Below are positions 3,525-40,167 of a DNA stretch of 64,000 bases, piece by piece (positions within the stretch are counted from its first letter, which is position 1; every line of letters begins with the position of its first letter). The notes under the pieces were generated by a model that did not search any database, was not told the origin of the DNA, and saw only the letters and a program-made list of their open reading frames with translations. The stretch lies in NCBI GenBank assembly GCA_047967505.1, contig CM106538.1; one strand, written 5' to 3'. The position numbers and the translations under genes were made by a program. The stretch comes from Dipteris shenzhenensis (Eukaryota).

Positions 3525-6500
3525 ATGGAGACTGTAAACAATGCCATGCACAGCCCCATAGCAGAACCGCAAGAGCTAAGCTTAGAGGAGGCACTCGCTT
3601 CATTGGAACGCACACCCCATCCGCCTTCGGTTGAAAACTTGACATGCATCTTGCGCAAGTGCAGAAAATACAAAAATCCAGCGTTAGCCCTGCGCTTGCA
3701 TGCCTACCTGCGCAAAGGTGGGCTGGAAGCTCATAACTCACTCGGGAACTATCTTGTCCCAGTGTTAGTGGAAGTTGGAAGCATGTGTGATGCCCAGCAG
3801 GTTTTTGATAGGTTGGTTGATCGGAATGAGTATTCCTGGACTTCTCTCATTACCGGATATATTGAATGTGGGGAGTTACACCATGCCTTTGTACTGCACC
3901 AAAAAATGCAGGAGGATTGTGTACATCCTAGTGGGTATACTTTCGTAGCCTTACTAAAGGCTTGTGCCAGGCTGAAAGATAAACAAAGAGGCCGAGAAAT
4001 ACATGCTCAAATTACGAGAATGGGGTTGTTGGAAATAAATCCTTTTGTTGGTAGCACCTTGGTTGATATGTATGCCAAGTGTGGCTTGCTTGCAAAAGCA
4101 CAGGAAGTGTTTGACAAACTTCCTGTTCGAGATGCAGTCTCCTGGAACGCACTTATCGCAGGGTATGCTGAACATGAGCTTGGTCAGGACGCACTGAACT
4201 GTTTCAAACAGATGCAATTAGAGGGCGTCTCTCCTGATGCGGTTACATTCATTTGCAGCTTGAAAGCTTGTGGCAGCATAGGAGCCATAGACAAGGGCCG
4301 AGAAATACATGCTGAGATTGCAAGAAAGGGGTTGTTGCAAAGAGCTCCTTCTGTTGGTAACACCTTGGTTGATATGTATGCCAATTGTGGCTTGCTTGCA
4401 ACTGCACAGGAAGTGTTCAACAAACTTTCAGTTCAAAATATAGTCTCATGGAATGTACTTATCGCAGGGTATGCTGAACATGACCTTGGTCAGGAGGCTC
4501 TCAACTGTTTCGAACATATGCGATTGGGAGGTGTCCCTCCTGATGCGGTCACGTTTGTTTGCAGCTTGAAAGCTTGTGGCAGCATAGGAGCCATAGACAA
4601 GGGCCAAGAAATACATGCTGAGATTGCGAGAAAGGGGTTGTTGGAAAGAAATCCTTTTGTTGGTAGCACATTGGTTTATATGTATGCCAAGTGTGGCTTG
4701 CTTGCAAATGCACAGGAAGTGTTCAACAAACTTCCAGTTCAAAATGCAGTCTCCTGGAATGCACTTATCGCAGGGTATGCTGAACATGACCTCGGTCAAG
4801 ACGCACTGAATTGTTTCGAAGAGATGCAATTGGAGGGTGTCTCTCCAAGTGCGGTCACATTTGTTTGCAGCTTGAAAGCTTGTGGCAGCATAGGAGCCAT
4901 AGACAAGGGCCGAGAAATACATGCTGAGATTGCAGGAAAGGGGTTCGAAATAAATCCTTTTGTTGGTAACACCTTGGTTGATATGTACGCCAAATGTGGC
5001 TTGCTTGCAAAAGCACAGGAAGTGTTTGACAAACTTTCAGTTCGAGATGCAGTCTCATGGAATGCACTTATCGCAGGGTATGCTGAACATGACCTTGGTC
5101 AGGATGCAATGAACTATTTCGAACAGATGCGATCTGAGGGTGTCTCTCCTGATGCGCACACATTTGTTTGCAGCTTGAAGGCCTGTAGCAACATGGGAGC
5201 CATAGACAAGGGCTTAGAAATACATGCTGAGATTGTCAGAAAGGGGTTCTTGGAAATAAATCCTTTTGTTGGTAACACCTTGGTTGATATGTATGCCAAT
5301 TGTGGCTTGGTTGCAAATGCACAGGAAGTGTTCGACAAACTTCCAGTTCGAGATGCAGTCTCCTGGAATGCACTTATCGCAGGGTACACTGAAAATGACC
5401 TTGGTCAGGAGGCACTGAGCTGTTTTGAACAGATGAGATTGGAGGGTGTCTTTCCTGATGCAGTCACATTTGTTAGCAGCTTGAAAGCGTGTGGCAGCGT
5501 AGGAGCCATAGACGAGGGCCGAGAAATACATGCTGATATTGCAAGAAAGGGGTTGGTCGAAGGAAATCTTTTTGTTGGTAGCAGCTTGGTTGATATGTAT
5601 GCCAAGTGTGGCTTCCTTGCAAAAGCACGGGAAGTGTTTGACAAACTTCCTATTCGTGATACAGTCTCATGGAATGCACTTATCGCAGGGTATGCTGAAC
5701 ATGACCTTGGTCAGGATGCACTGAACTGTTTTGAACAGATGCAATGGGAGGGGGTCTCTCCTGATGTGGTCACATTTGTTTGCAGCTTGAAAGCTTGTGG
5801 CAGCATAGGAGCCATAGACAAGGGTCGAGAAATACATACTGAAATTGCTAGAAAGGGGTTGTTGGAAAGAGATCCTTTTATTGGTAGCACATTGGTTGAT
5901 ATGTATGCCAAGTGTGGCTTGCTTGCAATTGCACAGGAAGTGTTTGACAAACTTCCAGTCCGAGATGCAGTCTCATGGAATGCACTTATTGCAGGGTATG
6001 CTGAACATGACCTTGGTCAGGATGCACTGAACTGTTTCGAACAGATGCAATCGGAGGGCGTCTCTCCTGATGCGGTCACATTTGTTTGCAGCTTGAAAGC
6101 TTGTGGCAGCATAGGAGCCATAGACAAGGGCCAAGAAATACATGCTCAGATTGCGGGAAAGGGGTTTTTGGAAAGAGATCCTTTTGTTGCTAGCACCTTG
6201 GTTGATATGTATGCAAAGTGTGGCTTGCTTGCAAAAGCACAGGAAGTGTTTGACAAACTTCTAGTTCCAGATGCAGTCTCGTGGAATGCACTTATCGCAG
6301 GGTATGCCCAGCTAGGAGAGAGTGATAAGGTTTTTCTTATACTTGACAGAATGAGAGCAGAAGACATAAAACCAGTTGGGGTCACATTCCTTAGCATTCT
6401 TACTGTATGCAGTCACACAGGTCTAGTGGAGAAAGGCCAGACATATTTTGAGGCCATGAGCAAAGACTATGGCATCACTCCAACTATTGAGCACCATAAT

Positions 6501-9499: not shown

Positions 9500-11950
9500 G
9501 AGAGGGAGAGAGAGAGAGAGGAGTGCACTCGATATAGCTGCCTATACAGTAAGTTGTATTGAACATGAACATGAAGATATACATGTGAATCCCTTAGGGT
9601 TAGGGTTAGGGTTAAGGTTTGGCCCTAATGCCCTAGAGGTATGGTGCAATTTACAACACCCCCTTTTAAATTGCACTGGGTAAGTAGAGGGTGCATGTAC
9701 AAAACCTTTTCATAGGATTTCTTTTGGTGCATATGATAGCATCCAAAACTGGTAAAAAATTAAAAAGAAATTAGAGTAGTGTGTGCATATGTGAGCACAA
9801 TGACTACATAGCGGAAGCATGTACAATGAGTACAACTTACTAGATCCTATACATATCGTGCATTTCCACCTCTTAAGTTGTGGGTCATCCTTCGTCTTTG
9901 GGAAGAAAACCCAACAGATAGGCTAAAGAGGAGGAAGGAAATATGCAGAAAGTCAAGTCCTCCTCAATTAAAAATTGGTCAATCAAAAAATGATTGCGTG
10001 CCAATCTGTGTGTATGGTTGCATGCTGAACATGTCATAAGTCACCATGGATTGTATAGATGCTTTGAAGAAGAGGCATCTAGATGTGAAGCTAGTCAATG
10101 TAGCCACGAAGACGTGATCCGATAGATTGTGACATACGAGGGTGTCACCAACCCAAAAGAGCTGACAACAATGTGTGAGGTATGCTACAGTAGAGCTATA
10201 ATCTCTATCAACTGATGCAAGGTTGAAGGAGACCGCATAGTTGATGTGGACAGACTGATCTAGGGGCTGAAAATTTGGGGCCGAAGGTGTAGGTATGATA
10301 CACTGCTCTACTGAAAAAGAATCCCATAAAACTGACAAGGTATGACAACTTGTCAAACTTGTATGCTTAGCTATGAGTGAAGGTCGTCTGATATGTGCAT
10401 GGCTAAACATCCATTGGCATGGGATATAGCATCAGTCATAGGCTCAAGGTGGAGCTGACAGTACAAAGGCCTAGAAGCCTGAAATACAACGAAAAAAGCA
10501 TAAGATGTCCCTGAGGCATATGAGGTGCCAAAGCTGATGTAGATGGGATTGCCTCATATTGAGGACTTACCATCAAATTTACAGAGGGCTTATTGAGAAG
10601 TGTGCCTCATGCTGAGGGCTTAGTGATAAGTGTGCATGATCAGAAACTGCAGGTTGATCCATGCTAATATATGAAGCATCTGTGTCTAATTTCTCAAGAC
10701 CAATGAGGCTTGAGTCTGCATCATAAATTGGTACATATCCTGTGGCAAGGAATGGTCGAAGAAGGTTCTCTTTCCACTCACGGATCTCGTCTGGAGTCAT
10801 GACTAGTGTATCATCAACTACATGATGTGAGTAGCTCCATGTTGGAGGCAACGGTTTGGTGCTCTATCTAAGAGGCTTACTCGTGTACCGGTGAGAATGT
10901 CTACCCATGAGAACACTATGTGAGAGCTAGCACTATGGAGCTTATGCTAAATGGTTAGAACCAAGTCATGTGAGAAGAACTACTATGTGCCAAGGATCAA
11001 GCCTGCAATAGAATGATGACTATTGACTGTCCGGTGTGATGTGTATGTGTAGGAACCAATGCCAAAAATAGTCAATGAAAAGGATTGTACATGGGTGGCA
11101 TATGTGCATGCAAGAAGAATGCAACAATCTTGAATCTAAAAGAACTCTGCCAATTGTCACATTGAATTATGAATTGCCAAATGCCAAGAGTATTGAATTG
11201 TTAGAAGTGTGAATGTGTATACCGATGATAGAACTAATGGGACTGACGTCACTAGGAACTAATTGGGTAATGTGGCATGGCTTGCTTGGCTTAGTGGAGT
11301 TGGTTCTCCTCTACAATGGAGCTAGTCTATAGCTAGACTATGTGTCAAAGCATCAAATGCAGCAATCGTTCATTTTATGTGATGGATGCGCTGCAATGGA
11401 TCAAGAGGTGGCTTTGATGAAAATGATTTGGTGATGCTAGCTTGTGGAAATGTCAAATGGTAGATCCGATGTGCTTAGCACGTAGAGCATGATCTAGTAA
11501 CCATTTTTGGTGTTTGGATCGCCTCCAAATTCCCTCTTGATCAAAAGATACAGCTCTCGGAAGCATATGCCAAACTTTGATCCCAAGAAGGCCCAACAAT
11601 GATGATGTGGCTTGTGGTGAGGTGGCAAGCTAAGTTCACATGGAGAAATGTATTGTGCCTATGTAGAGGCAAGTGTGCCTTGCTGGCACTGTGCCACATG
11701 TCATGATGACATGGCATGGCATGATGAGTTAGGGTCAAGATGATGTGGCACAACTGACTAAGCCAATGATGTGGCATGCGAGACCTAACCATGGTTAAGA
11801 AAACCTAGGTGATAGGGCTCTCTTGGCGACATGGCAGTCTGACAATTGATGATATGGTGCTCTTACTGAGGTGGCGGTCTGAGTTGTCAACTAATGATGT
11901 GGACTGCTTGCGTGGCAGATTCTCCACGTGGTAGTTAGGATAAGGTTGTT
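9500..11950 (-). mobile_element. Probable LTR-retrotransposon remnant (internal region, PPT and start of an LTR)
   Basis: Minus strand AAAAGGGGG|TGTTGTAAA at 9667-9650 looks like a PPT/LTR boundary; no recognisable domains in the interior. Confidence 0.4.
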
Positions 11951-12019
11951 AGGTGGTAGCCTATGAGACAAGCCTAAAAGATAGTTCTTTTATGAGGCTA
12001 GGGTTCAAGGCTAGGGTTC

Positions 12020-12075
12020 AGATACAGTTGCATGGATACACTGATGCTGATTGGGCTGGTAGTATTTCTGATAGA
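12020..12075 (+). mobile_element. Short Ty1/copia RNase H fragment
   Basis: QLHGYTDADWAGSISDR motif, joined abruptly to gypsy RT sequence. Confidence 0.7.
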
Positions 12076-12436
12076 ACATGGCGTGATTGTTGGCCACATA
12101 GTGTCCAAGAATGGCATCTCCATGGATTACAACAAGATCAAGATCATTGTAGAATTACCTCCCCCCCACAAATGCCAATGGCATGCAATGGTTTACGGGT
12201 CATACGGACTACTATCGAAGGTTCATCCTAAGGTTCATCCTGTTCTATGCAGAATTAGCTCGGCCACCATTGTACAAGCTATTAGTAGTCTTTGAGTGGA
12301 CCAAGGGGTGTCAAAAACTCCTTTGAAACCCTCAAGCTATCTTTGGCCATAGCAGCGGTGTTACAGGCCCTGGACTTATATTCCACATTCACATAGATGC
12401 CTCCAATTTTGCTATCGGATGTGTGTTCCAACCAGG
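12076..12436 (+). mobile_element. Older Ty3/gypsy RT-RNase H fragment, left part (split by the 12437-21543 insertion)
   Basis: HGVIVGHIVSKNGISMDYNKI..FHIHIDASNFAIGCV; continues at 21544. Confidence 0.8.
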
Positions 12437-13451
12437 TACTAACTAGAAAAGAATTCGAGGCATGATGCTAGATGCAAGGCATGGCTATGTTAGAGGGCCA
12501 TAGAGGAAAAGGGAACATGAGGGAAGAAGCATTAACATAGGTGGGGAAAAAGGATTAAGAGGGGTGGGAATGAAGAGAGGGACTATGCCACAAGGCGGAA
12601 GGGAGAGGAGTAAGAGGAGCATGTACATGATGGGAGGTGGAATGTAGAGATGGAGACATCAAGGGAAGAGAGTCATGCTTTATTTGAAAGGAAGGATGGG
12701 GGGGGGGGGGGAAATCAAAGTACTAGCTAGGTGGCTTTACAAGAATGAGCATGTTCCATCAAGGAATAGCCCCCTCCTTTTATAGCCAAGAGAGGGGGTC
12801 TCTCCCAATCAATGCATCCTCCCACAGGCATGGTGTGTGTGGAAAAGTCTCCCATGTGGGCTAGGCGGTTACGCACTCTCAATTGTGTGCGACAACCCTT
12901 GGCCTCATTTTTCCACATATATCAACACCCATATCCCAAGTCTAAGATACTCCCTTGGTCTCTTCCCAATTTTATAATACATTCAAACATCTAGGAGGAC
13001 AAGTGGACGGTTGGCACAAGGAATCTTGCCACCTCATCCTACTTTCCCATTATTTAACTTGCATTCTTGGACTTTCTATACCCCCCCCCCCCCCCACATG
13101 GGCCTATCCTACATGGAGGGAATAATCCAATATAATATCCATCTCCATCTATTTTATATTACTTCTCCAATGGTCCTTGGGCCATATCTCACTAAATGTA
13201 GGCATGGGACTGCCTAGGTGGAGGGGTGGTACATGGAGGACCCATGCCACCTTATCATTTTATATTATTACTACCATGGATTATGTACAACACACCTTAT
13301 GGGTCCTCTTACGTGGAAGGGTGGCACATGGTCATGCCCTACCACCTCAACCCTGGGCCTTATCCACACCATATTTTATTATACTATTGCCACACATACA
13401 AGCACACACACATATTTATGCCTTTTACTTTGGTCAAACTTATCCATAACA
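12437..13451 (-). repeat. 3' LTR of the gypsy element
   Basis: Highly similar to 20535-21543; begins TGTTATGGAT on the minus strand right after the PPT. Confidence 0.92.
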
Positions 13452-13462
13452 GTTCCCTCCCC
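13452..13462 (-). other. Polypurine tract
   Basis: GGGGAGGGAAC immediately before the 3' LTR TG. Confidence 0.8.
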
Positions 13463-13469
13463 AGGAAGG

Positions 13470-14800
13470 GAATGCACAACATTTCCATGCCTGGGACCAT
13501 CAGGCACAAAGAAGGGCTTGAGATAACACTTGTTGATCACCTTCTTGCCATATGGCTCATGCAGCTCTTGTACTTGTACAGACCCATTGCTATGTTCCTT
13601 GATAACTGTGTATGGACAGATCCACAATGGAAGGAACTTTTTATCCATCTGGTGGTCCAATCTATTATTAAAGCATAGCACAACATCTCCCTCAGCAAAG
13701 CGTCTTTCCCATCCCTTGTGAATCTTAGCATCCATGCGGGCCTTTTGTCGGTTCTTTTGGATCTCTGTTTGATGGAGTGCAAGGCATTGGGTTTCATCTA
13801 GCTTCTCAAGTTGTACCAACCTGGCCTCTACATGTTCATCTTCTGTCATCCTCTATTCTTGTGCTAATCTCAAGGCCGGAATCTCTATCTCTAGTGGTAA
13901 AACTGCCTCAGTACCGTACACCAACTCAAAAGGAGTGTGACCTGTAGACGTTTTATGGGTGATGTTGTAAGCCCACACGGCTTCGGTGACCTTCTGATCC
14001 CACTGGCTCCTGTTCCCTGTGGCCATTTTTCCCATGGATTTACAAAGGAGGCCATTGATCCGCTCCATTTGTCCCATGGATGCTGGATAATAGATGCTAG
14101 AAGTGCGATGATCAATACCCATGCGATCCATGAGCAACTCCACTGCTTCATTTAAGAATGGACTCCCATGGTCAGATACTATTTCCATGGGTGTCCCAAA
14201 CCTTGTGCAAATACGTTCAAATATGAAATTTGAAACTACCTTACCATTTGCAGCGGGGAGGGCAATAGCTTCAACCCACTTAGTGACATACTGACTGGCT
14301 ACCAAAAGATACTTCTTTTTGTGGGCAGTCATGGGCAGGGGCCCAACAAAATCTATTCCCCACTTATGAAACGGATGGATGGACATCATTGGGTGATGTT
14401 GCCCAGGACGCAAATCCTTCCTACCAAAGAATTGGCATGGTTCACAAGTTTTGCAATACATAGTGACATCCTTGAACAAGGTCAGCCAATAGTACCCAGC
14501 ATGTAAAATCTTCTTAGCTGTATAGTCACCGGCATAATGACCTCCACAAAATCCATCATGATAATGCTTCAATACCTTAGGTACTTCATCTGCATCAATG
14601 GCCCATCTTAGTACCCCATCCAAGCCTTGACGGTATAACACCCCATCAAAGAGAGTGTAGCGCCTACTATCTCTACGGATCTTCTTTCTCTCATAGCTAG
14701 TACTTTCTGGAGGAAAGGAGAAAGAGGTCAGAAATCTATAGATACCACCATACCATGGATCCCCAACTTCTATGGCTGCTACAAGGGTTACATCGAGGCA
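13470..14800 (-). pseudogene. Gypsy integrase (one in-frame stop near 13853)
   Basis: HHCC (HDGFCGGH..CEPCQ), WGIDFVGP, IVSDHGSPF, GQMERIN, C-terminal LWICPY..INKCYLKPF. Confidence 0.9.
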
Positions 14801-14859
14801 CTCCTCTAAACCAATCGAAGCATCCTTCAAGGTGGAACAACCCCCTTTTACAATTTTGA

Positions 14860-15190
14860 ACGAAAAATCATATTCTTGTAAAGCTACCAACCATTTGGCC
14901 AACTGGCCCATGGGATTTGGTGATTGAAGAACCTACTTTGCAAGACCATTGCTGCAAATTATGATGGACTTTCCAGCCACATAATGCTTAAATTTCTCAA
15001 TGTAGAATACCAAAGACAAGCATGCTTGTCAGCCTCAGAGTAGCGTCGTTTAGTTTCGAGCAATTGTCGAGAAGCAAATCTAACGGGATACATGAACCGA
15101 TCCTCCCCTTACTGGAGAAGAATACCTGCGAGAGTATGCTCACCAAACCCAAGATTGATATAGAAAGTCTTTGACCAATCAGGATTGCAT
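14860..15190 (-). pseudogene. Native pol RNase H, catalytically degenerate (tether-like)
   Basis: PDWSKTFYINLGFG..AGILLQ*..YPVRFASRQL..RRYSEA/QACLSLVF..KFKHYV..IIICSN..QLAKWLVALQEYDF: no TDAS, EKE or TDH acidic residues. Confidence 0.8.
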
Positions 15191-15199
15191 AGAATGGGT

Positions 15200-16100
15200 T
15201 CTGAAGCCAGAGCACTCTTGATTTGTACAAACCCATGATCACAATCCTCATCCCAAGAGAAATCAACTCCATCTTTTAATAGCATAGTCATGGGTCGCGT
15301 CAAAGCAGCATATTGATCAATGAAGCGGCGATAGTATCCTACTAGATTGACAAATGAGTATACCTGACGTTTGGTTGTTGGCGGGGGAGCTTGAGAATAG
15401 CTTCTACCTTCTCGAGGTCACGCTTGATGCCCTCGGATGAGACAATATGTCCCAGTAACCTCCCTTGAGTGGCCTAAATGGTGCATTTATCAGGGTTGAG
15501 GCTGCCATTTGCATCATTGACCTTTTGGAAGGCCAACCTAACCTTCATGATGTGCTTCTTACATGCCGAGAATATACAGAAATCATCTAAAAACACCTCC
15601 AAGAAAACCCCCAAATATGGAGCAAACACCATCTGCATGAAGCTTTGAAAGGTAGCAGGAGCATTGGTGAGGCCAAATGGCATTACTTTGAATGTAAACG
15701 TCCCCCAAGGTGTGGCAAATGTGGTTTTAAGCACATCCTCCTCAGCAATTCTTATTTGATAAAACCCGGAGTAACCATCACAGAAAGTATACATCTCATG
15801 ACCACTTACCTTCTCAAGAATGAGGTCTTGAAAGGGAAGAGGATGATGGTCCCTCTTGGTGGCTGCATTGAGTTTCTTATAGTCGATGCAGACCCGCCAC
15901 TTGTTGTTTTTCTTTGGGGTGACTACCATTGGTGAAACCCATTCAGTATTGTGAACCGGAACAATAAACCTAGCTTCTATAAGTTTCTACAACTCTGAGT
16001 GCAAAGCATCGGTCTGTAGGCGCCCTAATCTCTTATACTTCTGAGCCACAGGCTTCACATCAGAGGCTTCAGCTCTATCTTGTGCTCTATGGTAGTCACA
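15200..16100 (-). pseudogene. Gypsy reverse transcriptase
   Basis: WRVCIDYKKLN, DGYSGFYQI, MPFGLTNAPATFQ, FLDDF. Confidence 0.92.
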
Positions 16101-16335
16101 TGGCGAAGGTGGCGGTAGCTAGTTACGAAGAGGTCAGGGAAATCTTTGAACATTTCTAGGAACTCATCTTTCTCACTTGGCATGAGGTTTGGGGAAAGCA
16201 TAGATTCAAGCTATTGAGGACTAGCTGTTACCTTTTCTGCAGGTGGCAGGGTCAGAGACACCCTCATCATGTAAATTTCCTCCTCTGAGAACTCCTCCCC
16301 CCATCTAATTCTTCCATTGATTCAGACACCGAGGA

Positions 16336-17292
16336 TTAGAGAGTATCACTGTCTTGCTCCTCTTCTTCTTCTGGTTCAGTGGCACCTGGTTGCACCAAGA
16401 TCTTCTCCTTAGAAGCACCAAAAGACATGTGTCCTGTCTTCCAATAGCTAACTGCATCACTCTTTCTCAACCATGGTCTCCCGAGTATGGCTGGGTAACT
16501 CCTGCATGTATCTTTGATGTCCACTACATAGAAATTGACGGCGGTGGTCAACCCATTGACAGTGATGGGCAAATCCTCAATGACTCCCATGGTGGCGAGT
16601 CGTTGACCATCTGCTACCTTGATTCGAGTGGAGGAATGCCTTGTGCATTTCAAATTCAATTTCTTCATGATCCAGAGCACCATGATATTACATGCAGCTC
16701 CCCCATCGACACACACACTTTTGATATGGCAATTATCTATGATGACATCTACTATATATGGGTGCCGATCAATTTCTTCAGAGATAGAAGAAACCTCTCG
16801 TACCTTTCCCTTTTTCTTGCTCCTCCTTGTTGAGAGCCCTTGCTGCATCTCATGTCTCACCTTAGGGCTTAATGCTATTAGTTGAGGAAGCGTGATGCTC
16901 AAAGACCGATGAGCAAGGTCCTGAACGACCGAATAGTCCTCTTGCCCTAAGCCGATAGGAAAATCCGAGGGTGACAACTTACTCCTATGAGATATTTTAG
17001 TCTTCTTTGTTGGTGGGTTTGCCATCTCAGCATTTGAGGGCTCTGCGAAGGACACCTTCTTCCTAGGAAGGCCTGATCCACGGTTTGGACAGGGGTCCGA
17101 GGTGGTACGACTTCTTTTCCCAGGGTCAAGTATATCTACGTCAGAATCCTCAATGCCTGATTCACTTAGAAGATTCGCCCTTGGAATATTGGGGCATTCC
17201 GTGCAATAATGACCCTTCTGGTGGCACTTGTAGCACACAACATTGGCACATTCTCTTGGAGGGCGATTGGCTTGATTTCTGATGCCCACCAT
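16336..17292 (-). pseudogene. Gag C-terminal CCHC knuckle and aspartic protease
   Basis: CYKCHQKGHYCTEC; VDGGAACN; ILGRPWL. Confidence 0.88.
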
Positions 17293-17601
17293 CTCAAGCC
17301 GAAGATCATTCAGGGCCTTGGCTAGGTCATTGACTCCGAGTTCTTTAGCAGGAGGGGCCGGGGGAGTAGGAAGGAGGGGGGCTCATGGGCGAGGCTGGGG
17401 AAATCTTCCAGGCAGAGGTTGAGGATATACTCCTTGTTGAGGGTAAGCATCTATAGGAGGACCATACATTTGAGGTGGAGGCAGTGGATACATCCCTGAT
17501 GAGGGGTGGGGGTATGCCCCTGAGTTGGAGCCCCCAGGTTGTTGTTGCAAGAATTAAGGGGGTTGCAAAGGGACAATCGTCTTCTTTGAAGTGAGGTCAG
17601 A

Positions 17602-18105
17602 CTAAACTTTATCAAACTTTTGAGCAATCTCATGTGCTAGCACCATAGTTTCCGGATTCTCCCATTTAAGCTTGAGGCGGAACTCGTCACTTGCTCCTAC
17701 TACAAGGTAGCCCAGCACATGCTGAGTCATTCCAGCTCGAAATCCGACATTGTTCTCTTGTGTGGCAATTAAACGGTCCAAGAGCACGGCCGCTTGATCC
17801 ACATATTGATGCGCCGTCTTACCTTCTGACTGCTTCAAGTTTTCCACCTGCAAGTACACATTCTCTAGCTCTTCTTTGCCAAAATACTCAATCATCATTG
17901 CTGTCAACCTTGGCCAGCTTTGGCGAATGTCTTCGGCTTGCTTCTCATACCACACTTGAGCCAAACCCTCTAGAAATGTGGGAAGAACCAACAGCCATCT
18001 ATCTTCAGTAAGAAAGTTGAGAGAAACACAATGGCACTTGAAGGCCACAAGATACTCATTTGGATTTTCTTCAACCCATCCACAGAACACATGAATGTTA
18101 GCCAT
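17602..18105 (-). pseudogene. Retrotransposon gag capsid region
   Basis: MANIHVFCG..ENPNEYL..FLEGLAQVWY..SWPRL..LKQSEG. Confidence 0.8.
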
Positions 18106-18534
18106 GCTTGGAAAATGGAAAAGAGAGAGACGAAATGAGGCTTACCTATTGGCAAACAATGGAAAGAGGTAGCTTGAACTGAAAATCAAATGAAGATACA
18201 TCCACGAAGCACACATAGGCAGGGTAGGGTGTGACTGGTGTATTGTGAAATACTACACGGGAAGAATCTTCAACATAGAATAGCTCATAGGCAATCTTAA
18301 AAGGACCAACCCTTACAAGCGAGGGTTAGAGACACGGCGCTACATGAGGTTGTTCATCAAGGCAAACAAGAATGCCATGACAAATGTCAACAGTTGGAGA
18401 GCTTGCACATCACCTTCAGCTTCTTCCAGTTCTTGTAGTCACCATGCTATTTCTTCAAGGGGTGTGCGGTTTGGCATCCTTCTTTTGGGCAATGTCCTTG
18501 AGGACTTTCTGATGATATTCCAAAGTCGGTAAAC

Positions 18535-19068
18535 TCATATCAAATATGCCCAACACTTAGTTTCATGATGACCACAACCTTTGCATTCCTTACAAATGAT
18601 CACCCTCATTCGTGGCTTGCGGCTTTGTTGGAGCGATGCTTCCGCTCGTTTCATGCGTGATTGAAGTACAAGCTTCACTTGCCAAGAAATCAGCAACTAG
18701 ATTTTGAGCTCGAGGCATATGCTGAATTTTTACCTCTTCAAATTGTTGGCAAAGTTCCAATGCTTGTTGATACCGTGGAACCAAGCCTTCGCTCTGCACC
18801 TTCCACTAACTTGTTCACACATGAGTTGAGAATCTCCTTGAACCTCAAGTTGCTTGATGCGATGTTCTTGCGCCTTTTGTAGCCCAAAAATGAGTGTCGA
18901 GTACTCAACTTGGTTGCAAGTACTTGCTGGTGCAGACTCGCTATAACAATACACCTCACCCCCTGGTGAAGTGAGCTTCACATCCACACTAGCAGCCTTG
19001 GTCGAAGGTTTGTATGCACCATCAAATTGGAGGAGCCAAGATGTAAGACTAAAATCCGGACATCCCAA
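18535..19068 (-). pseudogene. Archaeal-type RNase H (aRH) followed by a CCHC knuckle, upstream of gag; two frameshifts
   Basis: WLLQFDGA, TCNQVEY, LEVQGDSQL, HMPRAQNLVADFLA; then CKECKGCGHHETKC at 18594-18553 in a shifted frame. Confidence 0.85.
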
Positions 19069-19259
19069 GTTTCTCGATAGTCCAAGACAGGTAGAAGGAG
19101 AGGGTGGGGAGAATTGAATACTTAAGCAAGATGTTCAGCACCAAATAAACTTGCAATCCTTTGTTGATAGTTTATATTTAGACCAAAAAGAATTACAACT
19201 TGAAGCTCAATGAGGCACAAAAGGTTGATTAGGTACAAAGGGATTCCTTGGTCGAAACA

Positions 19260-19670
19260 TTACCAACCATAGCCGAGCCCTAGAAACCTTTGTAGTGAGA
19301 TTGAGAAGAAATCATTCAAGACGAGCTTATCCACAGGAATTAATAAGCATATGCACCAAATCTCCCCCCAAGCTTGGAGAGTATCCCACCCTTCGAAGAA
19401 TGTCACCCTTTTAATTACCTCTGATGCAAAAAGTAGCTCGATCACTACACAATGAGTAGAATTGAAATCAAAGTCCTCCCACTGTATCACTAGTTCTTCA
19501 CCTTGAATCATCCACGGTGTATCATCCCACCCATCGTCACCTTGAACAACGCATTGTACAATTAGTTGTTGAAGATCGACATGAAGATCAAGAAAGAGAT
19601 CTCGCCAATTGGTAGCTGTAATGAGCAGAGGGCCGAGCACCAAATCCTTGAACTCGTCGAGAAGTGACAT
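19260..19670 (-). CDS. 136-aa ORF of unknown function in the gypsy 5' region
   Basis: ATG start, uninterrupted, same strand as gag-pol, acidic and W/F-rich; no recognised domain. Confidence 0.4.
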   Translation of the reverse strand: MSLLDEFKDLVLGPLLITATNWRDLFLDLHVDLQQLIVQCVVQGDDGWDDTPWMIQGEELVIQWEDFDFNSTHCVVIELLFASEVIKRVTFFEGWDTLQAWGEIWCICLLIPVDKLVLNDFFSISLQRFLGLGYGW

Positions 19671-19880
19671 AAATATTCACCCTCCTAGTGTGGCGTGCGT
19701 CCAATGAGTGAACTTGAAAAAGTTCAGAATCTACGATCTAGTATCAGATATGAATAGAGCACATGAAATGAAGTACTTTTGCTTTCTACAACAAGAGGAA
19801 ACTCCCTATGGTTAGAGAGTTATAGTTCATGAGATTTCACCATATAAGTAATATCATTACACTTGCATCACTTCCTATAT

Positions 19881-19940
19881 GCTGGCCCATTGGTAAGTCT
19901 TCCTTTTGTGAATGGGGAGGTCTTGGGTTCAATTCCCACT
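19881..19940 (+). other. Degenerate tRNA-like (Pol III A/B box) sequence in the gypsy leader
   Basis: TGGCCCATTGG (19883-19893), TTGTGAA loop, GGTTCAATTCC (19926-19936); no acceptor stem. Confidence 0.45.
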
Positions 19941-20512
19941 CCTTAATAAAAAGAGAGGAGAGCAGAGGAGAAGAGGAGAAAGAGAAAGAGAAAGAGAAAG
20001 AGAAAAAGAAGAGGATAGGGGTGCGAGAGATTTTTCAGGAGCCCAAAAAGTCTGTCCGTGATACGTAGGTGCGCCAGAAGACGCAGGGACCCAAGAAAAC
20101 AGTCACGATTTGTCCGCGATGCGCAGATGCACCAGAAGATGCAAGAACTCAAAAAACAGTTGTGATTCGCGATCTGTCCATGATGCAATGGCTACAACCA
20201 AGGGGCGTGCAGATGTTGCAGTTTTGTAGATACACAGGAGCGGTTTTGCAGGCGCAGTCAACCAGAAGACACATAGGAACCCAGAAGATGCGCAAGAACC
20301 TAGAAGAGGCACAGGAACCCAAAAGATGCACAGGAACCGCACGCTGAAGGCACAAAAATTGAGAAATTCTGCAGTCGCAGAGACGGAGAACTGCGAGCAG
20401 AAGATACGCAGATTGGAGGCGCAGAAGCAAAGAACTGCACAAAGAAGGTGCTATAGAACTACACCCAACCGCAGGAGTAACGAATTTTACACCACTAGCC
20501 GTGGAGATTTTG

Positions 20513-20530
20513 ATCCCAGTAGCCACACCA
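20513..20530 (-). other. Primer-binding site complementary to tRNA-His(GUG)
   Basis: Minus strand TGGTGTGGCTACTGGGAT, 4 nt after the 5' LTR; the plus strand matches the plant tRNA-His 3' end ATCCCAGCAGCCACACCA (recalled from memory) with one mismatch. Confidence 0.75.
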
Positions 20531-20534
20531 ATTC

Positions 20535-21543
20535 TATTAACTAGAAAAGAATTCGAGGCATGATGCTAGACGTGAGGCATGGCTACGCTCTAGGGCCATA
20601 GAGGAAAAGGGAACATGAGGGAAGAAGCATTAACATAGGTGGGGAAAAAGGATTAAGAGGGGTGGGAATGAAGAGAGGGACTATGCCATAAGGGGGAAGG
20701 GAGAAAGGGAAGAGGAGCATGTACATGATGGGAGGTGGAACGTAGAGATGGAGACATCAAGGGAAGAGAGTCATGCTTTATTTGAAAGGAAGGAGGGGGG
20801 CGAGGGGGGGAAATCAAAGTACTAGCTTGGTGGCTTTACAAGAATGAGCATGTCCCATCAAGGAATAGCCCCCTCTTTTATAGCCAAGAGAGGGGGTCTC
20901 TCCCAATAAATGCATCCTCCCACATGCATGGTGTGTGTGGAAAAGTCTCCCATGTGAGCTAGGCGGTTATGCACTCTCAATTGTGTGTGACAACCCTTGG
21001 CCTCATTTTTCCACATATATCAACACCCATATCCCAAGTCTAAGATACTCCCTTAGTCTCTTCCCAATTTTATAATACGTTCAAACATCCAGGAGGACAA
21101 GTGGAGGGTTGGCACAAGGAATCTTGCCACCTCATCCTACTTTCCCATTATTTAACTTTCATTCTTGGACTTTCTGTACCCGCCCCCACATGGGCCTATC
21201 CTACATGGAGGGAATAATCCAATATAATATCTATCTCCACCTATTTTATATTACTTCTCCCATGGTCCTTGGGTCATATCTCACTAAATGCAGGCGTGGG
21301 ACCGCCTAGGTAGAGGGGTGGTACATGGAAGACCCATGCCACCTTATCATTTTATATTATTACTACCATGGATTATGTACAACACACCTTATGGGTCCTC
21401 TTACGTGGAAGGGTGGCACATGGTCATGCCCTGCCACCTCAACCCTAGGCCTTATGCACACCATATTTTATTATACTATTGCCACACATACAAGCACACA
21501 CACATATTTATGCCTTTTACTTTGGTCAAATTTATCCATAACA
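20535..21543 (-). repeat. 5' LTR of the gypsy element, TATA-like CTATAAAAG near 20876-20884
   Basis: Highly similar to 12437-13451; followed by PBS; flanked by TSD CCAGG. Confidence 0.92.
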
Positions 21544-22110
21544 CCAGGCAAGTACAACTTGGACTACTTGGTGTACTTTGCTAGCCAGCAATTAAACGAT
21601 GCCGAGATTAATTATACAATAATAGAGAGGGAAGGCCTAGCCATGGTCTACACAGTTAAGAATTTCATGGATTAGTTGTTAGCCAACAAGTTCATCTTTT
21701 TTGTGGATCATCAAGCATTATTGTCTTTGATTAACAAGCCCTACATGATGGGATGCATCACAAGGTGGATGCTAATCCTTCTAGAGCTCAACTTCATAGT
21801 TGCAATGCGTAAGGGAAAGACCCCCGTCCTAGCCGGCCACCTCTCAAGGATTCCCAATGGGAAAGCTCCGATGGGAGTCAAGGATGATCTCCCAGATGCT
21901 CCCCTATTCCTCATCGACATAATTCTGGAATGGGCAGCCAAAATAGGCCACTACTTGGCAAACGGGCTTCCTCTAGATAAAGCCCTCAAGAGGGACAGAG
22001 CCCGCAAAGTTATCAAGGATGCAGTACCATATCAACTAATTGCAAGCTAGCTATACCACATGGGCAAGGATGGCATCATGTGTAGATGCATGTGCAAGCA
22101 CAAATACAAA
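21544..22110 (+). mobile_element. Older Ty3/gypsy RNase H fragment, right part
   Basis: VYFASQQLNDAEINYTIIEREGLAMVY..FFVDHQAL..ITRWMLILLE..LAGHLSR. Confidence 0.82.
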
Positions 22111-27723: not shown

Positions 27724-27753
27724 GTACGTGTATCAACCAGCTGAAGTCAATCC

Positions 27754-29607
27754 ATGGAGACCGCAAACAAGGCCATGGACAGCCCCATAGCACAGCTGCT
27801 GCCAGAGCTTAGCTTAGAGGAGGTACTCGCTTCTTTGGAACGCTTGCCCCATCAGCCTCCGGTTGAAAACTTGGCAAGCATCTTGCGCAGGTGCAGAAAA
27901 CACAAAAATCCAGCGTATGCCCTGCGCTTGCATGCCTACCTGCGCAAGAGTAGGCTGGAAGCTCATAAGTCACTCGGGAATTACCTCGTCCCAATGCTCG
28001 TGGAAGTTGGAAGCATGTGTAATGCCCAGCAGGTTTTTGATAGGTTGGTTGATCGGAATGAGTATTCCTGGACTTCTCTCATCACAGGTTATATTGAATG
28101 TGGGGAGGTCGAGCATGCCTTCGTACTGCACCAAAAAATGCAGGAGGATTGTGTACATCCTAGTGGGCATACGTTCGTGGGCTTACTAAAGGCTTGTGCC
28201 AGGATGAAAGATACAAAAAGAGGCCAAGAAATACATGCTGAGATTGCGAGAAAGGGGTTGTTGGAAAGAGATCCTTTCGTCGGTAACACGTTGGTTGATA
28301 TGTATGCCAAGTGTGGCTTGCTTACAAAAGCACAGGAAGTGTTCAACAAACTTCCAGTTCGAGATGTAGTCTCTTCGAATGCACTCATTGCAGGGTATGC
28401 TGAACATGACCTTGGTCAGGATGCACTGGGCTGTTTCGAACAAATGCAATTGGCAGGTCTCTCTCCTAATGCGGTCACATTTGTTTGCAGCTTGAAAGCT
28501 TGTGGCAGCATAAGAGCAATAGACAAGGGCCAAGAAATACATGCTGAGATTGCGAGAAGGGGGGGATTGGAAAGAAATCTTTTTGTTGGGAGCACCTTGG
28601 TTGATATGTATGCCAAGTGTGGCTTTCTTGCAAAAGCACAGGAAGTGTTCGACAAACTTCCAGTTCGAGATGCGGTCTCGTGGACTGCACTTATCGCAGG
28701 GTATGCTGAACATGACCTTGGTCAGAATGCACTGAACTGTTTCGGACAAATGCAATTGGAGGGCGTCTCTCCTAATGCAGCCACATTTGTTTGCAGCTTG
28801 AAAGCTTGTGGCAGCATTGGAGCCATAGACAAGGGCCAAGAAATACATGCTGAGATTGCGAGAAAGGGGTTGTTGGAAAGAAATCCTTTTGTTGGTAGCA
28901 CCTTGCTTGATATGTATGCCAAGTGTGGCTTGCTTGCAAAAGCACAGGAAGTTTTTGAAAAACTTCCAGTTCGCAATGCGGTCTCGTGGACTGCACTTAT
29001 TGCAGGGTATGCTCAGCTAGGAGAGAGTGAAAAGGTTTTTCTTCTACTTGACAGAATGAGAGCAGAAGACATAAAACCAGATGGGGTCACATTCCTTAGC
29101 ATTCTTACTGTATGCAATCACACAGGTATGGTGGAGAAGGGCCAGACATACTTTGAGGCCATGAGCAAAGACTATGGCATCACTCCAACTATTGAGCACC
29201 ACCATTGCATGGTTGATCTCCTTTGCCGTGCAGGCCAATTAGACAAGGCAGTATTGATGATAAAGAAGATGCCGTTGAATCCTAATCTTGAATTGTGGAA
29301 TGCTGTGTTGGGTGCTTGTCGGAAGTGGGGGAATGTGGAGCTTGGAAGGTGGGCCTTTGAACATGCAATGGAATTGGATAAAAAGGATGCTGCAGCTTAT
29401 GTCTTGATGTCTAACATCTATGCTGATGCTCACATGCAGGAGGACTCTAAGCAGGTTGAGTTCATGAGATCAAAAGAAGCACAGAAGAAGCCTGGACAGA
29501 GTTGGACTGATGTCGGCGGAATTGTGCATTCAGTTTTGGTAGGGGATACAGGACAATCCCAAAGCAATTATATATATGAAAAGCTAGAAGATCTTTCTTT
29601 CAAATAA
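27754..29607 (+). CDS. PLS-class PPR protein, copy 2: L-S-(P1L1S1)x3-P2L2S2-E1E2 plus start of DYW
   Basis: 617-aa open frame, paralogous to copy 1; ends after KKPGQSWTD..KLEDLSFK at a 1-nt deletion. Confidence 0.92.
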   Translation: METANKAMDSPIAQLLPELSLEEVLASLERLPHQPPVENLASILRRCRKHKNPAYALRLHAYLRKSRLEAHKSLGNYLVPMLVEVGSMCNAQQVFDRLVDRNEYSWTSLITGYIECGEVEHAFVLHQKMQEDCVHPSGHTFVGLLKACARMKDTKRGQEIHAEIARKGLLERDPFVGNTLVDMYAKCGLLTKAQEVFNKLPVRDVVSSNALIAGYAEHDLGQDALGCFEQMQLAGLSPNAVTFVCSLKACGSIRAIDKGQEIHAEIARRGGLERNLFVGSTLVDMYAKCGFLAKAQEVFDKLPVRDAVSWTALIAGYAEHDLGQNALNCFGQMQLEGVSPNAATFVCSLKACGSIGAIDKGQEIHAEIARKGLLERNPFVGSTLLDMYAKCGLLAKAQEVFEKLPVRNAVSWTALIAGYAQLGESEKVFLLLDRMRAEDIKPDGVTFLSILTVCNHTGMVEKGQTYFEAMSKDYGITPTIEHHHCMVDLLCRAGQLDKAVLMIKKMPLNPNLELWNAVLGACRKWGNVELGRWAFEHAMELDKKDAAAYVLMSNIYADAHMQEDSKQVEFMRSKEAQKKPGQSWTDVGGIVHSVLVGDTGQSQSNYIYEKLEDLSFK

Positions 29608-30780: not shown

Positions 30781-31830
30781 GAGGATTACCAAAAAGCGAG
30801 CGACAAAAAGCGAGCAAGCCAAAAAAAGCGAGCGATAAAAAACAATAAAAGATTTATAACCATTTTAGTAGCAAAAAATAATATCTTATTCAAAAGTGCA
30901 TATATTCCCTCAATGCCAGAAGGTTAAACATGCATATAACTTTAAATCTATTAACACTAATTTCACATTATCCATGAGACAGTTTGTATGTTTAACTTCC
31001 AAGTCATTGTTTGTATCAAAGACAAACCCTATTGCAATCAAGTTCTCTCTTTCCACTAGAGTAATTGAGATCATCTTTCCAAGGACTCCTTGCATGGATT
31101 AGTCTAGATTCCATGCATATGTAAATGCTTAGGTTTTTTAACTCTGTTCACTCTTGAAACAAAACCCATGTTTCTTTGTTACTGCAAAAATATCCTTCCC
31201 TAATGATTTATTCTTACCTCCCACTAATCTTACCAATGCAGCAAATTGGCCACAAATTCATTTTTTGGTGCATTAAATTTTACTAGATGGTGCACAAAGA
31301 CATGATAATCGTCTAAAGTACGCCTTGCCATTTGATTTGATATGTAACATGACCCCGTTTGGACTTGTAAATCAAAAGATACAGGGATGTGAAAATGTCC
31401 TCTTTTGGGCCAAAACACGGAGCACGTTAACGCGCTCCCTGTTTTGGCCCAAAAGAGGACATTTTTACATCCCTATATTTTGGCAAGGTGTCAACATTTG
31501 ATTGTTTTGGTCCAAAAGATGAGTTTTTAACATCCCTGCATCTTTTGATTATCAAATATAAATGGCATAATGTTACATATCAAATCAAATGACAAGGCAT
31601 GATTTAGATGAATATCATGCCTTTTTGCACCATCTAAAAAACTTGTGTGCATCATAATATAAATTTTGTGACACATAACCACCTTTTTGAATACTTTATA
31701 CTTCAAGCAATTATTTTATAAAAAACTTAGATTCTTTCTTTGCTTGCTTGATTTTCCAACCACTTCAACTAATTGTTGCTCGCTTTTTTGGGCTCGCTCG
31801 CTTTTTCTCGCTCGCTCTATTGACTACCTC
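30781..31830. mobile_element. Non-autonomous Mutator-like/foldback element
   Basis: 9-bp TSD GATGGTCAC (30772-30780 and 31831-31839); imperfect TIRs starting GAGG with AAAGCGAGC subrepeats; central palindrome; empty site near 32420. Confidence 0.85.
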
Positions 31831-32339
31831 GATGGTCACCAGTAAGTGGGCAACCTCATTTATTTTTGCTCTATGAGGCTTGATACTGACTAGGCTACAA
31901 GGTTGTCAATTTTGGCATTGTCCATTGATGACAAACCATCCACTTTTGGCTATTATTTCTCATTGACGTCAGCTTGCTCAGCGAGTTAGGGACTGTCTTT
32001 CATCTAGTGAAGTGAAACATAAGGCAATGAATGCAATCACTATGGAATCCATGTGGTTAAGGGCGTTAAAACATGATCTACAATCATTCAAAAGATAGTA
32101 TAGCCACTCCACTTACTATGACAGTCGGAGTTGCATCATCATAGTAGCAATACGTCTCACATGAAGGATATTGAAAATCACCAACATTACCTTCATGGTT
32201 GTATGGAGGACAAGTCCACTGACCTCGCTATTGTCTATCCACGAACAATGTGGCAAACATCTTTGCAAAAGCACCTAAAATCCCTGATGCTTTAAAATAG
32301 TTCTTTTCTTGTATAGGCATTAAAGAATAAATATTTTTT

Positions 32340-32930
32340 TATGAGCTAGCTCCCCTCTCCCCTTTGGTCTACTACCAAGACGCCTCAAGCTCAATAACTA
32401 TAACACAACTGAATAATTTGATGGTCACCAGTAAGTGGGCGACCTCAATTTATTTTGCTCTATGAGGCTTGATATTGACTATGCTACAAGGTCATCAATT
32501 TTGGCATTGTCCATTGATGACAAACCATCCACTTTTGGCCATTATTTATCATTGACGTCAGCTTGCATTTCATGGCTCAGCAAGCTAGGGACTCTCTTTC
32601 ATCTAGTGAAGTGAAACATAAGGCAATGAATGCAATCACTATGAAATTCATGTGGTTAAGGGTGCTAAAACATGATCTACAATCATCCAAAAGATAGCGT
32701 GGCCAATCCACTTACTATGACAGTTGGAATTGCATCACCATAGTAGCAATGTCGTCTCACATGAAGGATATTGAAAATCACCAATATTATCATCAAGGTT
32801 GTATGGAGGACAAGTCCATTGACCTCGCTATTGTCTATCCAAGAACAATGTGGCAAACATCTTTGCAAAAGAACCTAAAATCCCTCATGCTTCAAAATTA
32901 GTTCTCTTATTGTATAGGCATAAAAGAGAT
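32340..32930 (+). repeat. Local duplicate of the Copia-remnant segment (30690-30780 plus 31840-32330), lacking the Mutator-like insertion
   Basis: Collinear similarity, e.g. CTCAAGCTCAATAACTAT..GATGGTCACCAGTAAGTGGGC..GCAAACATCTTTGCAAAAG. Confidence 0.85.
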
Positions 32931-39030: not shown

Positions 39031-39736
39031 TGCAAGCCATCCCCGACAAAAATGAAGATTTGGGAAACCAATTCTTCCTTAGTTAGGATTAGATTGTATC
39101 ACGAGCACTCACTTCCATATGTACATCTTCGCACATATAGGTAGCATCAATCGATTTTAACCTAGGGCTCAGAAGTGATGCCTGAGTTCTAGTTGCCCTA
39201 TGAAAATCCCAACAATAAAAAGAGCATATAGTTAGTCCATACCTAGCTACTAGGTCATGTGCACTCACACGCTTTCGCTTAGATAATGCACGGCAACATT
39301 GATTGCTTCCCACGTTACCTCAATTCCCATTTGCCTCCACTCAGTTTCAATCCCAATTAATGGGTCGATGCTCAGATTACAAGCCCACTCTATCAAAGAG
39401 TGATATTCTTAGAAGCACGCCACATATCTCTGTTCGAGCAAATGGTGGATACAGACTACCTGGAAACTGCGCAAAAATTGTATGGTGCCAAGGCTTTACA
39501 GCAGGATCGACTGGCACGACACAAGTTCCATAGCCATTGGACTAAAAGCATGGCAACCCAGGTACGTGCTCGCAATCAGCCATAACTTGAGGACGGGTAA
39601 TAAAATGGATCCGAGAGAATGTTGTTGTCTCTGGGCTAACATGGACTTAGGTAGAACAGAATGTGTGTGTAGAGTAGCAGCAAATCTCTGCTTGTACTTG
39701 CATAAGGCTAGAAATAATCCATCTTAGAAATCCAAC

Positions 39737-39975
39737 TTGCATGTTCTACATGCAAGTTCTACATACAACTCCTACATGCAACTCCTACATGCGAGTTGTA
39801 CATGTGAGTTGTACATGCGAGTTCTACATGCAAGTTCTACATACGACTTCTACAGGCAACTCCTACATGCGAGTTCTACATGTGAGTTGTACATGCGAGT
39901 TCTACATGCGAGTTCTACATGCGAGTTCTACATACGACTTGTACATGCGAGTTCTACATGCAAGTTCTACATGTA
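39737..39975. repeat. 13-bp minisatellite (CTACATGCGAGTT)
   Basis: About 18 head-to-tail variant copies. Confidence 0.9.
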
Positions 39976-40167
39976 GAGAGAGAATGTCTTACACTTCCTA
40001 CATGTAGAGAGAGAAGCTCTCCAACTTGTATAAATACCCCATAATGGAATGAAGCCCACACTCTTTGGGGCATTGTGTTGAGTTCTACTTTGGTATTCCA
40101 AGCAATTGTCTCAAGTGTCCATGCTTCCTTGCACTCCACGTCCAAAAGCATGTCCTAACCTTGCAAC

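Follow-up and report, generated by a model that had tools for sequence, protein, structure and literature searches.

A stretch of 64,000 nucleotides from the fern Dipteris shenzhenensis (hereafter the window) holds a Ty3/gypsy element of 9.1 kb (12437-21543, minus strand) in which an archaeal-type RNase H (aRH) lies between the 5' LTR and gag, and none lies in pol. We believe that this is probably a decayed copy of a multi-copy, Tat-kind element of ferns built in the manner known as structure #4 or 'pre-capsid', in which the order would be LTR, primer-binding site (PBS), a 1.4-kb leader, a solo aRH ORF, gag, protease (PR), reverse transcriptase (RT), a degraded native RNase H (RH), integrase (INT), polypurine tract (PPT) and LTR. 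A preliminary description of this DNA had proposed a further, undescribed arrangement. That proposal has to be given up: the accessible text of a 2023 survey reports structure #4 for four mosses and Selaginella tamariscina (Biryukov and Ustyantsev, PMC10508981), and that of Prokopeva et al., 2026 (PMC13468544) names the layout 'pre-capsid'. For ferns, the accessible sections of both papers report structure #1 alone, with the aRH inside pol. A literature search at the level of main texts found no fern case of the pre-capsid layout, and a fern lineage with it may so far be unreported. We thus seem to be dealing with a described Tat structure in a new host group.

The assignment to Ty3/gypsy follows from the two LTRs, the target-site duplication (TSD) and the order gag-PR-RT-RH-INT (Table 1). 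The two 1-kb LTRs are 94.9% identical across 1017 aligned columns with 10 gap letters (blastn of one LTR against the other). When the element and one CCAGG are removed, the joined flanks form a single continuous RH-like frame of another gypsy element; therefore the element arrived by one clean insertion event, in a retroelement older than itself. Self-blast found no second copy of the internal region in the window, and no tRNA gene was found within its 64 kb. The leader matches no Pfam family in any of the 14 stop-free pieces listed for 19052-20532, nor does the 138-aa leader ORF at 19260-19676. Its repeats comprise a 19-bp tandem repeat (20262-20338, TRF) and a (GAGAAA)n tract (19976-20010). 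The part of the leader at 20016-20349, which includes the 19-bp repeat, is nearly missing from the contigs of both DNA runs that we mapped (depth 8 and 0.1) and seems either to vary among copies or to be private to the window copy.

Table 1. Features of the element and its insertion site in the window
Feature	Coordinates	Strand	Basis or remark
Target-site duplication CCAGG, 5 bp	12432..12436 + 21544-21548		read from sequence
3' LTR	12437..13451	minus	blastn of LTR regions, ends read in sequence
Candidate polypurine tract	13452..13466	minus	adjoins 3' LTR; putative, from sequence read
Integrase, zinc-binding and core	about 13853..14827	minus	Integrase_H2C2 E 3.3e-11, rve E 1.4e-12
Native RNase H	14828..15417	minus	several frame pieces; RT_RNaseH_2 and RT_RNaseH fragments (Pfam)
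Reverse transcriptase	15474..15986	minus	RVT_1 E 6e-25
Gag nucleocapsid CCHC knuckle and aspartic protease	16336..17382	minus	knuckle 17194-17235 by pattern
gag (capsid) ORF	17602..18141	minus	likely Met 18103-18105
Extra CCHC zinc knuckle	18553..18594	minus	follows basic stretch; between aRH and gag
Archaeal-type RNase H, Pfam RVT_3	about 18671..19026	minus	between 5' LTR and gag
Leader	19135..20511	minus	about 1.4 kb, no recognisable domain
Candidate primer-binding site	20512..20530	minus	starts TGG; 4 nt from 5' LTR
5' LTR	20535..21543	minus	TG...TA termini; blastn of LTR regions

The repeat that received the insertion is the RH domain of a plus-strand Ty3/gypsy element (11700-12436 and 21549-22100), in which the DAS motif is kept. 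Over its segment 12000-12333 the summed depth in the DNA runs reaches 83,000-166,000, and therefore this plus-strand host element is a very abundant repeat; the same segment is also the main site of the RNA reads. Elsewhere in the window are two related plus-strand genes of the pentatricopeptide-repeat (PPR) family (3569-6466 and 27745-29607), which lie some 24 kb from each other and contain 306-bp repeats of 86-92% likeness; the reading frame of the second is open over 620 codons. Among the 120 relatives listed for the latter, the named ones belong to Adiantum capillus-veneris or Ceratopteris richardii (37-56% identity), except for Cryptomeria japonica and Diphasiastrum complanatum; this points to a fern host from outside Adiantum and Ceratopteris. 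There is also a tandem array of about 25 units of 13 bp at 39676-39998, and, at 31821-32898, a set of direct repeats of 91-94% likeness with a spacing of about 600 bp.

The pre-gag RNase H is recognised by the Pfam RVT_3 profile in two minus-strand ORFs: 18730-19134 (134 aa; E 8.7e-12, profile positions 2-94 of 123) and 18590-18805 (E 2e-6, profile positions 82-123). The domain so delimited falls within the segment 18535-19068 singled out in the preliminary description. In line with the preliminary description, their translations contain FDGA, NQVEY, GDSQL and PRAQNLVAD, the full DEDD motif set, and the domain lies on the gag-pol strand, upstream of gag and inside the element bounded by the CCAGG duplication and the LTRs. 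A single frameshift near 18800-18806 places its halves in different frames and the open frame lacks a Met ahead of the domain, because of which the aRH of the window copy is not an intact ORF. The earlier claim of a separate RNase H ORF stands as regards position, outside pol and before gag, but the frame is broken in this copy, and separate translation would apply to intact ones. By sequence, the sole PDB match of the domain is an RNase H1 (4e19/4nyn, E 1.6e-5). When metagenomes were scanned with the aRH ORF, 114 stretches matched by pattern and none of them was confirmed.

Downstream, the gag ORF has no Pfam match and aligns with the gag end (residues 15-167) of the polyprotein P0168 of the fern Adiantum nelumboides at 24% identity (BLASTP, E 9e-7). 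The protease match is weak (Asp_protease_2, E 0.0026, below the Pfam cut-off), as is that of the adjoining knuckle (zf-CCHC_3, E 0.057). Pol is broken into many pieces, and the window copy is decayed and dead. A Pfam scan of the internal region, in 60 stop-free minus-strand pieces, gave no further RVT_3 domain and no chromodomain after INT. The tblastn search with the aRH domain recovered a single locus within the window. Alignment to P0168 likewise shows no aRH between the native RH and INT: the open RH-INT frame (359 aa) aligns with residues 1086-1120 and resumes at 1279, skipping the stretch in which P0168 has its in-pol RVT_3 (residues 1156-1276). An aRH upstream of gag with none in pol, as already noted in the preliminary description, is the arrangement that defines the pre-capsid class.

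The state of the native RH bears on what this domain might do. Its motif 1 reads FYINLGFG in the window and FYVNPSVG in the aRH-bearing fern relatives, as against YTDAS in an aRH-less Marchantia element; motif 3 reads CSN, LTVEE and TDH, respectively. Thus, the Asp positions of motifs 1 and 3, which we take to be catalytic residues, are replaced in the window just as they are in the aRH-bearing fern relatives. According to the 2023 survey, all Tat structures that have an aRH show a degraded native RH, and the Tat Z lineages, which lack an aRH, have kept theirs intact (PMC10508981). An element whose native RH has decayed and whose pol is free of aRH would need an RNase H from elsewhere, and the pre-gag ORF would be its obvious source.

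To see whether other copies share the pre-gag RNase H, we compared the 134-aa ORF with 1.84 billion representatives. This yielded 675 matches at E up to 0.001, 13 at 1e-10 and one at 1e-30. Other copies of the RNase H region exist. One of them, P0001 (96 aa), has an aRH 79-84% identical to that of the window and reads across the site of the window's frameshift; it has a Met 7 residues before FDGA, keeps all three of the catalytic motifs that its sequence covers, and its frame stays open for 96 codons until the contig ends. A second, P0002, is 74% identical and extends into the window's upstream flank. Two of the three other copies seen as proteins are scrambled, among them P0006 (52% identical), and all three come from contigs below 650 bp. 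At position 19044 both P0001 and P0002 have a Met where the window copy has Leu, and contigs of both DNA runs carry nine extra bases there.

The two DNA runs, from two studies (X1 and X2), were mapped at 85% likeness, and the depths given are summed word depths and not copy numbers. They are 113-163 (X1) and 314-565 (X2) across the aRH (18346-19347), 57-68 and 151-315 across gag (17344-18011), and 49-122 and 190-370 across the 3' LTR; in both runs the aRH region reaches roughly the depth of gag and pol. The RT bins are far deeper than the others, because they hold a conserved stretch common to other families. Depth is unbroken from gag through the aRH to about 20015 in both runs, and both also show a 98-nt skip at 18247-18346. 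Among the contigs (200-370 nt) and proteins examined, none from another copy connects an aRH with gag. Contig joints pass over 16852-19569 in one case and over 18568-18765 in another; therefore some copies are without the region. The layout would probably be typical of the family. As for transcripts, two RNA runs, of which 10.2 and 12.9 million records (about a fifth and about a quarter of the runs) were examined, gave zero reads on 16676-21351, a span that takes in gag, the aRH and the leader as well as most of the 5' LTR. The few reads that mapped were in the flanks and in a conserved part of RT, and INT and PR showed traces. Among the indexed runs, no RNA run is listed as carrying the sequence.

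These data speak to the possibility that the RNase H is found in the window copy alone, as a piece of some other element that became nested in the leader, or was rearranged into it, once the retrotransposon had inserted. Such an origin would fit with there being a single copy readable in full, with the long leader devoid of known domains and with the uneven depth profile. However, P0002 has the RNase H with the same upstream flank, depth runs on continuously across the junction with gag in both runs, and a check of its edges for an insertion of its own, as the preliminary description had suggested, found no second TSD, repeat, LTR, TIR or poly(A). We accordingly regard this origin as highly unlikely.

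In plant LINEs, too, the RNase H that ends ORF2 is of the RVT_3 type. Together with the zinc knuckle close by, this raises the alternative that the 3' end of a plant LINE, with the terminal RNase H of ORF2, was inserted in the leader. A LINE end of this kind is, nonetheless, barely credible here: the 14 upstream pieces show neither RVT_1 nor zf-RVT by Pfam, poly(A) is absent downstream, the knuckle follows the RNase H instead of preceding it, and in other copies a Met stands directly ahead of the domain.

The provenance of the domain itself was examined by phylogenetic analysis. Its best matches other than copies are proteins with two RVT_3 domains that are 35-37% identical, one of them from a transcriptome of Psilotum nudum. 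In a quick tree of 169 domain rows, the window aRH and P0001 group together (98) within an open polytomy, where their neighbours are archaeal (Haloarcula) and bacterial (Aquificaceae) RNase HI and Tat-like aRH of angiosperms. In the free tree the window aRH stands apart from both the clade of fern in-pol aRH (99) and that of the plant cellular proteins (96-98). In AU tests on 72 rows, it could be forced together with the fern in-pol clade (p-AU 0.69) or with plant cellular RNase H1 and the dual-RNase-H proteins of ferns (p-AU 0.65). The constrained trees outscored the free quick search in both tests; therefore the latter had fallen short of the optimum. The domain has no firm place in the aRH tree, and the AU tests reject neither clade. 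The source of the Tat aRH in general is likewise left open in the accessible text of the 2023 survey (PMC10508981).

It is against this background that we weighed whether the RNase H might be functionless cargo throughout the family, namely a fragment of a cellular RNase H of ferns caught in the leader by template switching, with the family being non-autonomous and borrowing the RNase H of structure-#1 elements. The dual-RVT_3 proteins being the best intact matches, the p-AU for the grouping with the plant cellular proteins, and the fact that every copy seen is broken or partial are all compatible with this. The domain nevertheless falls outside the cellular clade in the free trees, Pfam finds no HBD (Cauli_VI) domain in the element's ORFs or internal pieces, the four catalytic motifs are kept in the window along with the three covered in P0001, and Tat elements of other plants have this layout as one of their established structures. 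Hence, we consider cargo of this type improbable. An identity as a cellular eukaryotic RNase H1 was separately rejected, as there is no Cauli_VI match and the locus lies inside an LTR element.

RT provided a second line of phylogenetic evidence. The search retrieved 2773 proteins at E up to 1e-10 among 3053 candidates, of which 120 were listed. Most of those listed are 57-65% identical to the window RT, the best of these being 61-65%, and nearly all the named ones are from Adiantum nelumboides; one partial row reaches 69%, while rows from Tanacetum, Vitis and Chara lie at 39-48%. RVT_3 was carried by eight of the ten RT matches scanned, in all eight after the native RH; in the six that have both RVT_3 and an integrase domain, it precedes the integrase in each case, which is structure #1. 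A careful tree of 37 rows groups the window RT with the fern polyproteins that have in-pol RVT_3 (95/93), outside the 25-row core of that clade (100/99). FastTree with 119 rows recovered the same position with a support of 86. With RT trees that were built without labelled Tat or Athila references, the membership in Tat would rest on the domain architecture of the neighbours in the tree. The partial row with the top identity among the matches listed, P0254 (69% identical across 83% of the query), comes from a 1.6-kb contig in an assembly of the Enterobacter cloacae complex. It falls within the fern clade of the RT trees and is likely plant DNA within a bacterial record.

A further feature of the region is the extra CCHC knuckle. 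It begins 4 nt past the stop of the frame encoding the C-terminal part of the aRH, in a different frame, and lies outside gag as aligned to P0168. A strict CCHC pattern occurs four times in the six-frame translation of the window and two of these matches hold stops; the two stop-free ones are the extra knuckle and the gag nucleocapsid knuckle, both of this element. The extra knuckle may be the tail of the solo aRH protein, split off by another frameshift in the window copy. A homologue search in the near-length range with the 71-aa C-terminal piece of the aRH found no candidate. If it does belong to the same protein as the aRH, the knuckle would suggest a route by which a separately made RNase H reaches the site of reverse transcription.

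Under the pre-capsid reading that we favor, we infer that intact copies make the solo aRH from their genomic RNA, upstream of gag, with gag being reached via leaky scanning, reinitiation or a shorter RNA. The aRH protein would have to enter the particle in trans, perhaps via the basic stretch and the CCHC knuckle; there it would supply the RNase H activity for reverse transcription, with the native RH reduced to a tether. A more specific version holds that the window element represents an unreported fern Tat lineage that is sister to the in-pol Tat D, in which the aRH left pol after the decay of the native RH and the solo aRH has a nucleocapsid-like basic stretch and CCHC knuckle of its own. 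We offer this only as a tentative scenario, on the whole unlikely. If true, the knuckle-bearing aRH could bind the genomic RNA and enter the particle. This would answer the question of how a separately encoded aRH can work outside pol in reverse transcription, which the authors of the 2023 survey ask in its accessible text (PMC10508981).

Published surveys read deep relationships among plants from where the extra RNase H lies, treating its placement as a marker of lineage, and the arrangement that they report for ferns is solely the retrovirus-like one in pol (PMC10508981; PMC13468544). A fern pre-capsid lineage beside the fern in-pol clade would blur the picture of one structure per group, and a close pair of elements, one with the domain in pol and the other with it before gag, would let domain movement be studied.

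Comparisons with described systems help delineate what is shared and what is distinct. The nearest in layout is Tat structure #4, found in Tat B of mosses and Tat C of Selaginella tamariscina, which likewise carries the aRH within the LTRs on the gag-pol strand, ahead of gag and not in pol, and which combines a degraded native RH with a full-DEDD aRH, the same as the window element. However, the host here is a fern and the RT lies beside the fern in-pol clade, the comparison being with the published descriptions of Tat B and C. In addition, the window aRH is followed by a CCHC knuckle, whereas the main text of the 2023 survey has no mention of zinc, knuckle or nucleocapsid (PMC10508981). The nearest relatives by RT are the fern Tat D elements of structure #1 (gag-PR-RT-RH-aRH-INT; Adiantum nelumboides P0155, P0156 and P0168), which are 61-65% identical to the window in RT, 40% in INT and 24% in gag, and which have the native RH degraded at the same places. 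In contrast to the window, their aRH sits between RH and INT, where the window has about 10 residues replacing a stretch of about 158, and it forms a clade of its own (99) that excludes the window domain in the free tree.

Among the other Tat elements, Ogre, Retand and further ones with extra ORFs before gag resemble the window in their long leader and additional ORF, as described in the accessible text of Ustyantsev 2015. Their extra ORFs, unlike that of the window, are PMD or transposase-28-like and not RNase H, and their aRH resides in pol; the three pol-associated positions (PR-RT, RH-INT and after INT) listed in the preliminary description agree with the accessible text of Neumann et al., 2019 (PMC6317226). 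Beyond plants, a parallel is seen in the dual RNase H of retroviruses, where the native RH is similarly degraded and an acquired active RH takes over. In those, however, the acquired RH is fused in pol beside the tether, whereas in the window it is encoded apart. The source clades of the RH also differ, being Fungi/Metazoa-like in the retroviruses and archaeal-like in elements of the window type, as stated in the accessible text of the 2023 survey (PMC10508981).
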